This document shows positions 30,850-33,291 of a DNA stretch of 44,584 bases, one piece after another (positions within the stretch are counted from its first letter, which is position 1; each line of letters opens with the position of its first letter). The stretch spans positions 1-44,584 of IMG/VR virus record IMGVR_UViG_2529292883_000001, one strand, 5' to 3'. The position numbers and the translations under genes were made by a program. The stretch is from a virus (lineage: Duplodnaviria; Heunggongvirae; Uroviricota; Caudoviricetes). The notes under the pieces are model-generated. The model saw only the letters and a list, made by a program, of their open reading frames with translations. It was not told the DNA's origin and searched no databases.

Positions 30850-33291
30850 ATGAGCACTGATAAAGAAGAATTTGCACTATATTGCGAAGCAAAAAATGAC
30901 AAAGTAAGAAAACGCCTGGGAATTAAAGGTGGTTTTTACTGGACTACAGCAAAAAAATTATCTGTTGCAATCTCCCGCTGCATTACCGCAATGGATGACA
31001 ACGATTATGATGAAGACGACTTTAAAAAACCCGTCCGCGTCAATTTGCCCGTTGTTGACGACCTTCCGCCAGAAGGCGTGTTTGATACTGAATTCTGCAA
31101 CCGCTATGAAAAAGGCGGGAAAGATGGCATCACAATGACATTTATCGGCCCTTCCCCCTCTGTTCAGGACAAACCAGCCAGCACTGACAATACCAACATC
31201 AACGGCGAAGACATGACTGAGATTGAGGAGAGCATGCTTCTGCCTGTCTCCGGTCAGGAACTGCCCATTCGTTGGCTTGCTCAACACGGCAGCGAAAAAC
31301 CAGTAACGCACGTTTCACGCGACGAACTCCAGGCATTGCACATTGCACGGGCTGAAGAACTACCGGCTGTTACTGCCCTGGCTATTTCGCATAAAACCAG
31401 TCTGCTCGACTCGCTGGAGATTCGCGACCTCCACAAACTGGTGCGTGATACTGACAAAGTTTTCCCTAATCCTGGTAATTCAGACCTGGGATTAATAACT
31501 GCTTTTTTCGAAGCATACCTGGACGCTGACTACACCGATCGGGGTCTGCTGACAAAAGAGTGGATGAAAGGAAATCGTGTTTCACGCATCACCCGCACGG
31601 CTTCCGGTGCTAATGCTGGCGGTGGGAACAAAACCGATCGCAATCCGAATTTAGTACACACCCTCGACACACTGGATGTGGAGATTGCAGCAGCCACACT
31701 TCCGATGGATTTTAATATTTATGAAATTCCGGGCAGCGTTTATCGTCGCGCAAAAGAAGTAGTCCTGAAAAAAGAAAGTCCGTTTAAAGAATGGTCCGCA
31801 GCACTTCGCGCAACCCCGGGTATTCTGGACTATTCCCGCGCCGCTATTTTTGCACTTATCCGAAGCGCACACCCTGAATTTTATCACTACCCGGGACGTC
31901 TTCAGGGGTATATCAACGCCTATTTGACGGAAACTGATCACGAGAACCCCAGCAAGGAAACTCTCACAGCTGCCCGGCATACGCCGGAAAAAGATATCCT
32001 GGAAGAAATTAACCGCGAGGTGGTTACTGAGCGTGAAACAGAAGAAGAAAAACCACAACCATCTGACGCAATGGCAGGTGAACAGGCAACAACTGAAACA
32101 ATGGAACCGGATACAACTGAACATTGCCAGAACGCGCAGTCGCTGGATGCTCAGTCGCAGGTGAGTTCCGCTAACCAAGTAAAAGTCACCGCTGACGAAG
32201 TAAACAAAATTATGCAGGCAGCCAATATCAGCCAGCCTGACGCCGATAAGTTACTTGCTGTATCGCGTGGTGAATTTGTTGAGGGGATTAGCGACCCTAA
32301 TGATCCGAAATGGGTCAAGGGGATCCAGACTCGCGATTCTGTGAACCAGAACCAGCATGAATCGGAACGGAACGACCAGAAAGCGGAACAAAACAGCCCA
32401 CATACGCAACAAAACGAGCCAGAAACGAAACAACCTGAACCAGTAGTGCAACAGGAACCGGAAAAGATCTGCACCACCTGCGGTCAAAGCGGTGGCGGCA
32501 ACTGCCCTGATTGTGGTGCAGTGATGGGCGACGCAACATACCAGGAAACATTCGATGACAAGAACCAGGTTGAAGTTCAGGAAGACGATTCGGAGAAAAT
32601 GGAAGGCGCTGAACATCCACACAAGGAGAATGCTGGCAGCGCTCAGGATCACGCCAGCGATAGTGAAACTGGCGAGACGGCAGATCCCTTAATTACGGTG
32701 AACAGTCATCACGTTATCACATCCACCAGCAGGACGTGTGACCATCTAATGATCGACCTTGAAACCATGGGAAAAAATCCTGATGCCCCGATTATCTCAA
32801 TAGGTGCAATATTTTTCGATCCGCAAACCGGAGAGATGGGACCAGAATTTAATAAAACCATCGATCTGGAAACTGCTGGCGGAGTCATTGATCGGGACGC
32901 GATCAAGTGGTGGCTGAAGCAATCACGCGAAGCGCAATCTGCCATTCTGACCGATGAAATCTTGTTAGATGATGCACTACTGCAATTGCGGGAATTTATC
33001 GACGAAAACTCCGGTGAATTTTTTGTTCAGGTCTGGGGTAATGGGGCCAACTTCGACAACGTGATTTTACGCCGTTCATACGAACGACAGGGTATCCCCT
33101 GCCCGTGGCGCTACTGCAACGATCGCGATGTACGCACAATCGTTGAGCTGGGGAAAGCCATAGACTTCGATGCCAGAACGGATATCCCATTCGAAGGTGA
33201 GCGCCATAATGCACTTGATGACGCTCGTTACCAGGCAAAATACGTTTCAGCTATCTGGCAAAAACTGATCCCGAGTCAGGCTGATTTTTAA
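30850..33291 (+). CDS. Prophage exonuclease ('exodeoxyribonuclease VIII'-type) with C-terminal DEDD-like 3'-5' exonuclease domain
   Basis: 813-aa ORF; acidic/Gln-rich linker, zinc ribbon [17 protein letters not shown]-terminal MIDLETMG...[11 protein letters not shown]...HNALDDARY. Confidence 0.6.

Follow-up and report, generated by a model that had tools for sequence, protein, structure and literature searches.

A RecE-type prophage protein with a predicted DEDDh exonuclease domain in the position of the RecE nuclease

Exodeoxyribonuclease VIII (RecE) encoded in the Rac prophage of Escherichia coli K-12 (b1350) combines a C-terminal PDDEXK-like domain (PF12684, residues 615-850), which is a 5'-3' double-stranded DNA (dsDNA) exonuclease, with a long N-terminal part comprised of a PF06630 region, helical domains, an acidic linker and a CxxC-x7-CxxC zinc ribbon. 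The recE gene occupies an early-left operon position near xis/int and is adjoined downstream by recT (and also by ralR/rcbA). According to a 2023 review, the function of the RecE N-terminal domain is unknown (PMC11611040). Another relevant group includes DexA of phage T4, a DEDDh DNA exonuclease, and its E. coli homologue EcD, which digests T4 DNA containing 5-hydroxymethylcytosine (5hmC), spares unmodified dsDNA and protects against T4; residue W152 of DexA reportedly stacks on 5hmC (Kang et al., NAR 2025, PMC12153337). Here we analyze an 813-amino-acid (aa) exonuclease gene in a stretch of 44,584 nucleotides (nt), referred to below as the window (IMG/VR virus record IMGVR_UViG_2529292883_000001, positions 1 to 44,584), which represents a lambdoid prophage at tRNA-Ser/mtfA. 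As judged by sequence comparison, the protein is a RecE in which the PD-(D/E)XK nuclease is replaced by a DEDDh domain, and its gene shares with Rac recE the early-left position near xis/int, but not the adjoining recT and ralR/rcbA.

Domain architecture and mosaic origin

The open reading frame (ORF) is intact (813 aa plus a stop codon, with an ATG start and GAGG ~11 nt upstream). Its C-terminal part matches PF16473 (Rv2179c-like 3'-5' exonuclease) at aa 632-803 with E 2.8e-67 and 226.3 bits (vs. a gathering cut-off of 27), spanning profile positions 2-177 of 177, and contains the motifs D-x-E (D636-E638) and H786-x4-D791. Across 72 diverse aligned homologues D636 never varies, and E638, D736, H786 and D791 are each at least 90% conserved. 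A sequence search of the PDB matched only T4 DexA (8KEL/8KEN, E 2.6e-5), and in an AlphaFold2 (AF2) model of aa 525-813 the nuclease is confident (predicted local distance difference test, pLDDT, >90), while the linker is modeled poorly. A Foldseek comparison with the PDB also placed DexA at the top (8KEN/8KEL, E 7e-11), the next matches being RNase T, DnaQ, 3'hExo, REXO2 and Orn. By profile, residues and modeled fold, aa 626-813 is a complete DEDDh exonuclease domain of predicted activity. As for a PD-(D/E)XK nuclease, PF12684, present in Rac RecE, was absent from the window protein in a Pfam scan, and no part of the window matched RecE residues 600-866 below E 2 in tblastn.

A preliminary description of this locus, made from the letters of the sequence, had proposed a large exonuclease with an N-terminal region, an acidic/Gln-rich linker, a CxxC...CxxC zinc ribbon and a DEDDh-type C-terminal domain differing from the PD-(D/E)XK fold of RecE. 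All these elements are found at the expected position and with the expected composition, including the cysteine pairs C541/C544 and C552/C555. What that description missed is that the N-terminal ~615 aa are RecE-homologous (aa 58-616 align with Rac RecE residues 50-592 at 58% identity by BLASTP), and that authentic RecE likewise possesses the linker and the zinc ribbon.

Within the N-terminal part, Pfam recognizes PF06630 (Enterobacterial exodeoxyribonuclease VIII) at aa 57-189 (E 3.4e-36), and the NCBIfam exoVIII equivalog (NF007259) matches aa 1-616 only, covering profile positions 1-603 of 877, with a score (944.2 bits) below its curated equivalog cut-off of 1269. For aa 1-445, AF2 modeling with 58 homologues gave a confident structure (mean pLDDT 83.8; 303 residues reach at least 90) of three folded blocks followed by disorder (Table 1). 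The second block is the best conserved part shared with Rac RecE, and the third is common to RecE and YdfE/mEp460-type exonucleases; a BFVD structure search with the N-terminal region gave no match at E <0.001. The linker contains a conserved motif (aa 446-500), and the composition of aa 381-625 is markedly acidic (52 D+E vs. 18 K+R) with 24 Q. Ratios of nonsynonymous to synonymous substitution rates (dN/dS) were estimated against three orthologues: the folded domains gave 0-0.2 and the linker 0.5-0.6 (0.35 vs. mEp460); the gene is under purifying selection and is maintained.

The boundary between the shared and the exchanged parts is well defined. The BLASTP homology with Rac RecE ends at RecE residue 592 and PF12684 starts at 615, so that the break coincides with the edge of the nuclease domain. 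At the DNA level, Rac recE matches the window at 31188-31641 (92% identity) and 32041-32693 (74%), and phage mEp460 matches it at 92% over two stretches, namely 29950-30854, which takes in dicF-dicB-ydfD and reaches the start codon, and 32178-33299, which covers the protein from aa 443 onward. Mosaic joints are accordingly placed at 32693 with respect to Rac and at 32178 with respect to mEp460. The mEp460/CP-933P-type exonuclease (823 aa) shares with the window protein the linker, zinc ribbon and DEDDh domain (~92% identity in DNA over window aa 444-813), as well as the gene layout dicB-ydfD-exo-xis-int in a record deposited as a phage genome, whereas its first ~260 residues are of YdfE type and unrelated to the RecE-type N-terminus of the window protein. 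A conserved stretch of linker (aa ~444-615) is common to Rac RecE, the mEp460 exonuclease and the window protein, and this linker has likely served as a homology patch for the exchange of N-terminal modules and nucleases, as the sequence comparisons suggest. An mEp460-type N-terminus survives in the Qin prophage of K-12 as ydfE, an IS2-disrupted pseudogene fragment. K-12 YdfE was also considered as a remnant of the window protein itself and rejected, its match being to the mEp460-type N-terminus instead.

Comparison of the C-terminal domain with its characterized relatives places it within the DexA/EcD family. An EcD-like sequence was obtained by searching viral contigs for the EcD forward primer given in the published supplement (PMC12153337); the recovered 189-aa protein starts with MIDTET, has the reported A78, and the 3' end of its gene matches the reverse primer except for one base, on which grounds it is likely EcD. 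This protein is 38% identical to the window C-domain (E 3e-37) and T4 DexA is 28% identical, sharing the DEDDh pentad; Pfam places both of them, like the window domain, in PF16473. The differences are in format and in individual residues: EcD (~189 aa) and DexA (227 aa, with extra loops and helices) are standalone proteins, whereas the window nuclease is fused to a 625-aa RecE-type N-terminus. The Trp of DexA and EcD (DexA W152) aligns with Cys756 in the window protein and in the relative from strain A37. Codon 756 (33115-33117) is polymorphic: phage 640R1, strain 190693 and mEp460 have Tyr there, as against Cys in the window and A37. The position of DexA D90, a tetramer residue, is Asp (D708) in the window protein, while EcD has no Asp there; the position of DexA S87 is Leu, and the region of DexA D169 aligns poorly and is unreliable. 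As far as these alignments go, the window domain is a member of the DexA/EcD family that falls outside the published EcD/HREX signature (the W152 equivalent is not Trp). Rv2179c of Mycobacterium tuberculosis, the namesake of PF16473, has the same Pfam family and DEDDh chemistry but is a distant, standalone bacterial exoribonuclease, which the PDB sequence search did not retrieve at E <=0.01. DexA comes from a virulent phage with modified DNA, whereas the window gene belongs to a temperate lambdoid phage.

Gene neighbourhood, nuclease type and prevalence

The early-left region of the window is ordered as DicA/PaaR2-like repressor, PaaA2, ParE, ydfA, ydfB, ydfC, DicF, dicB, ydfD-like gene, exonuclease, DUF4224 and integrase. 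No annealase was found among the ORFs of the early region, every one of which was compared with PHROGs and Pfam (calls included Q, RusA, DUF968/HNH, ead/Ea22-like, DUF977, a replisome organiser, YdaT-like, Cro-like and Hok). Likewise, tblastn with three RecT proteins against the whole window gave nothing below E 0.2, and the Prokaryotic Genome Annotation Pipeline (PGAP) lists no annealase in near-identical prophages. The small ORFs upstream of the exonuclease gene, considered as a possible hiding place of an annealase, were rejected as such; they correspond to PaaA2/ParE, ydfA/B/C, dicB and ydfD (in addition to the DicF small RNA). The early statement that no Bet/RecT-like gene is nearby therefore holds over the entire window, to which the prophage-wide annealase search proposed in the preliminary description was extended, and the suggestion made there that the protein may not be a classical recombination exonuclease is supported by the DEDDh domain, the lack of PD-(D/E)XK and the lack of an annealase. 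Aspects that go beyond that description are the kinship with T4 DexA and EcD, the co-variation of nuclease type with recT and the prevalence in E. coli.

An early homologue search gave no information on diversity, since all it yielded were near-identical partial E. coli proteins. A HMMER search of 1.84 billion representative sequences gave 11,300 matches, the best 150 of which were classified by segment. Among these 150, a RecE-type N-terminus is paired with a C-terminal DEDDh domain in some 20 clusters (50% identity) and with a C-terminal PD-(D/E)XK domain in some 20 others, while the DEDDh domain alone was detected in 67 proteins, mostly of about 180-250 aa. The DEDDh-type architecture is kept in distant relatives at 39-48% identity. 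Gene context follows the nuclease type: xis/int comes directly after the exonuclease gene, and recT is not beside it, in all eight DEDDh-type loci examined (the window, mEp460, strains 190693 and A37, and representatives P0126, P0142, P0149 and P0132), whereas recT follows immediately in 4/4 PD-(D/E)XK-type loci (Rac, P0177, P0148 and P0154). Since context tracks nuclease type, the exchanged units are a nuclease domain plus annealase, on the one hand, and a DEDDh domain alone, on the other.

In complete genomes of E. coli the DEDDh module is more than twice as common as genuine recE-recT: DEDDh-domain DNA is present in 4066 of 5426 genomes (8100 places, up to 7 per genome), and the Rac recE C-domain together with recT in 1750. 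The RecE-type N-terminus of the window protein is found at >=80% coverage in 1519 genomes, including CFT073 and ST131. The names assigned to such genes in databases vary among 'exonuclease', '3'-5' exonuclease', '3'-5' exoribonuclease', 'RecE family exodeoxyribonuclease' and 'exodeoxyribonuclease VIII'.

Some representatives (P0137, P0213, P0207, P0209, P0249 and P0184; 716-814 aa) have a RecE-type N-terminus and no C-terminal nuclease detectable by Pfam or phmmer, with PF06630 as their only Pfam match; these may be truncated gene calls or may carry a third C-terminal module. In three divergent DEDDh-type loci a protein of ~110 aa with a match to Rrf2 (PF02082) is encoded just upstream of the exonuclease (L033, 5522-5860; L035, 5533-5859; L037, 476-826), taking the place of dicB/ydfD, and it may be a conserved partner.

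Mapped features and other genes of the window

The features of the exonuclease gene and of its operon are collected in Table 1.

Table 1. Coordinates of the exonuclease gene, its segments and neighbouring features in the window
Feature	Position	Strand	Basis or remark
Whole ORF, RecE-N-terminal/DEDDh chimera as judged by comparison	30850..33291	+	ORF translation, Pfam, NCBIfam, BLASTP vs. Rac RecE
N-terminal domain 1 (aa 1-100), alpha/beta	30850..31149	+	Weak eL20/PurS ferredoxin-like resemblance
N-terminal domain 2 (aa 116-253), helical	31195..31608	+	AF2 model, comparison with Rac recE
N-terminal domain 3 (aa 258-396), helical	31621..32037	+	AF2 model, sequence comparisons
Acidic Gln-rich linker (aa 397-625), predicted disordered	32038..32724	+	pLDDT <50, composition, dN/dS, mosaic joints
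Four-cysteine zinc ribbon, C541-x2-C544-x7-C552-x2-C555	32470..32514	+	Motif kept in Rac RecE; weak Pfam DZR match
Predicted DEDDh 3'-5' exonuclease domain (aa 626-813), DexA/Rv2179c-like	32725..33288	+	D636, E638, D736, H786, D791
DicF small RNA	30157..30208	+	Rfam RF00039, 71.8 bits; same early-left operon, upstream
dicB (62 aa)	30383-30571	+	Upstream of the exonuclease gene
ydfD-like DUF1482 lysis gene	30562-30756	+	Directly upstream of the exonuclease gene
Excisionase-like DUF4224	33350-33553	+	Immediately downstream of the exonuclease gene
Tyrosine integrase (341 aa)	33553-34578	+	Downstream; with DUF4224 occupies the recT slot of a RecET module
tRNA-Ser (cga), prophage attachment site beside mtfA	34631..34720	-	Rfam, annotation of relatives

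The dicF-dicB-ydfD arrangement upstream of the exonuclease gene, in which dicF is complete, resembles the dicBF operon of the K-12 Qin prophage, and no plus-strand match to a sigma-70-like promoter was found in the gap between ydfD and the exonuclease gene. The integrase gene is intact in the window, whereas the annotations of the two closest prophages (strains 190693 and A37) give it a frameshift. At 28083-28994 (plus strand), three consecutive genes encode a DicA/PaaR2-like helix-turn-helix regulator (135 aa), a PaaA2-type antitoxin (PF21217, 28521-28712) and a ParE toxin (PF05016, 28713-28994). They have the look of a toxin-antitoxin set of the paaR2-paaA2-parE2 type at the head of the early-left operon, and this set is missing from the relatives in strains 190693 and A37.

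Elsewhere in the prophage, a 239-aa ORF (18631-19350, minus strand; phrog_1521, no Pfam match) lies within a stretch of 44% GC between the antiterminator Q gene and a tRNA cluster. In this slot lambdoid phages carry morons, e.g., toxin genes. The phage tRNA cluster itself (Gly-tcc, Thr-tgt and Lys-ttt; 18205-18437, minus strand) is located upstream of the lysis genes, and the A37 relative has a fourth tRNA (Ile) in it. Embedded among ead/Ea22-like genes are two minus-strand ORFs, one for a hok-like toxin (22663-22875) and one for an HNH endonuclease (23451-23906). A 2685-aa repeat-domain ORF (36027-44084, plus strand) downstream of mtfA and tRNA-Asn belongs to the chromosomal flank outside the prophage, and presumably resembles YeeJ-type adhesins.

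Possible function and significance

The interpretation that we favor, with a probability of roughly 60%, is that the gene encodes an annealase-independent, metal-dependent 3'-5' DNA exonuclease expressed from the early-left (dicB) operon, rather than a RecET/Red-type recombinase. According to this interpretation, a mosaic early-operon protein would have retained the RecE-family N-terminal region, linker and zinc ribbon, and the PD-(D/E)XK 5'-3' dsDNA exonuclease domain of RecE, together with the downstream recT, would have been swapped for a DexA/Rv2179c-like DEDDh domain. Derepression of the dicB-type early-left operon, upon induction or infection, would yield the nuclease, which would digest DNA from 3' ends in a metal-dependent manner and would need no annealase. 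It would act while tethered by a long flexible linker to the RecE-type N-terminal module, the latter probably being a targeting or assembly platform that accepts either nuclease type. Candidate roles would include nucleotide or DNA scavenging, end processing in lytic growth, or attack on DNA of competing phages or on DNA-based host immunity. The 3'-5' polarity of DEDDh enzymes leaves 5' overhangs, the wrong substrate for RecT/Red-beta-type annealing, and this fits the systematic lack of recT beside DEDDh-type genes. A number of points weigh against the favored interpretation. Literature searches found no biochemical or genetic data on the fused protein, structure comparisons of the N-terminal fold gave no characterized relative, and the platform idea is drawn from modular co-occurrence. 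Besides, Rv2179c, the founding member of PF16473, is an exoribonuclease, making an RNA substrate conceivable; host RecA or an unrecognized annealase could still let the nuclease serve recombination; and lysogens are expected to keep the early-left operon repressed, limiting any lysogenic role. A broader proposal, tentative and rather unlikely as it is, takes the RecE N-terminal region as a platform that temperate enterobacterial phages equip with interchangeable nucleases, and the DEDDh version as a conflict module, not a recombination enzyme, directed against competing phage DNA or against DNA components of host immunity such as retron multicopy single-stranded DNA (msDNA); the PD-(D/E)XK 5'-3' exonuclease with RecT may then serve recombination, and the DexA-like DEDDh 3'-5' exonuclease may act partnerless. 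Published retron-trigger work on RecE was set aside in weighing these possibilities, as it concerns only the Rac PD-(D/E)XK enzyme, which triggers retron-Sen2/Eco9.

Other explanations differ in how much of the evidence they can accommodate. A prophage defence or exclusion nuclease of the EcD/'HREX' type, degrading the DNA of superinfecting phages (especially that with modified cytosines) and sparing unmodified host DNA, is rather unlikely, although the identity of its domain to the EcD-like protein, the T4 protection and 5hmC-DNA digestion by EcD (PMC12153337), and the presence of the DEDDh family in 75% of E. coli genomes, often in multiple copies, speak for it. Yet the equivalent of W152 is Cys756 (Tyr in most alleles), the D90 equivalent missing in EcD is kept as D708, the PADLOC defence-system models have no match in the window, and EcD is a standalone protein with no fusion; furthermore, the operon would be off in lysogens, and the gene is also carried by mEp460. 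An Rv2179c-like 3'-5' exoribonuclease acting on phage or host RNAs, perhaps trimming operon transcripts or small RNAs such as DicF, is improbable: DexA and EcD, the characterized proteins closest to the DEDDh domain in both sequence and fold, are DNases (PMC12153337), Rv2179c itself was beyond the reach of the PDB search, and the domain stands where RecE has a DNA exonuclease, in a recombination-gene slot by xis/int. What suggests RNA is the name of PF16473 and the PGAP label '3'-5' exoribonuclease' given to some of these genes, the rank of RNase T, Orn, REXO2 and 3'hExo next after DexA in the fold search, and the location of DicF ~650 nt upstream.

A genuine recombination exonuclease, i.e., a functional equivalent of RecE working with host RecA/RecFOR or with an annealase supplied in trans from another prophage, would be in keeping with the genomic slot (the same as that of exo/bet or recE/recT), the 615 aa shared with RecE, the 'exodeoxyribonuclease VIII' entries in phage records and the RusA encoded in the prophage. 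Nevertheless, we consider it very improbable in view of the missing PD-(D/E)XK domain and the exoVIII score below cut-off, the 5' overhangs that 3'-5' polarity generally leaves in place of a RecT/Red-beta substrate, and the systematic distribution of recT, which accompanies the PD-(D/E)XK type and is lacking next to the DEDDh type. Hardly credible is the view of the gene as a non-functional leftover, in decay, of a recombination module that lost recT and the RecE nuclease domain: truncated versions are indeed frequent in cryptic prophages, and K-12 ydfE is such a fragment of the sister type, but here the 813-codon ORF is intact with a folded-domain dN/dS of 0-0.2, all catalytic residues are present, the architecture persists in the distant relatives, and mEp460, a deposited phage genome, carries a gene of the same DEDDh type.

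Overall, the architecture is already visible in databases (as Pfam domains and as 'exonuclease' in PGAP), while in the literature we found no paper on the fusion, on the nuclease swap relative to RecE or on the linkage between nuclease and recT, and no experimental study of the DEDDh module. Judged by its sequence, the protein is a RecE-family scaffold carrying a DexA-family nuclease, ordinary in occurrence and unusual in architecture. The labels 'exodeoxyribonuclease VIII' and 'RecE family' imply a RecET system that is absent, and could mislead counts of phage recombinases as well as searches for recombineering enzymes. The exchange of nucleases on a conserved scaffold offers a starting point for explaining the N-terminal two thirds of RecE, which have long been a puzzle and the role of which must suit nucleases of opposite polarity, and the kinship with DexA and EcD suggests a role of the DEDDh-type protein in DNA scavenging or phage-phage conflict.

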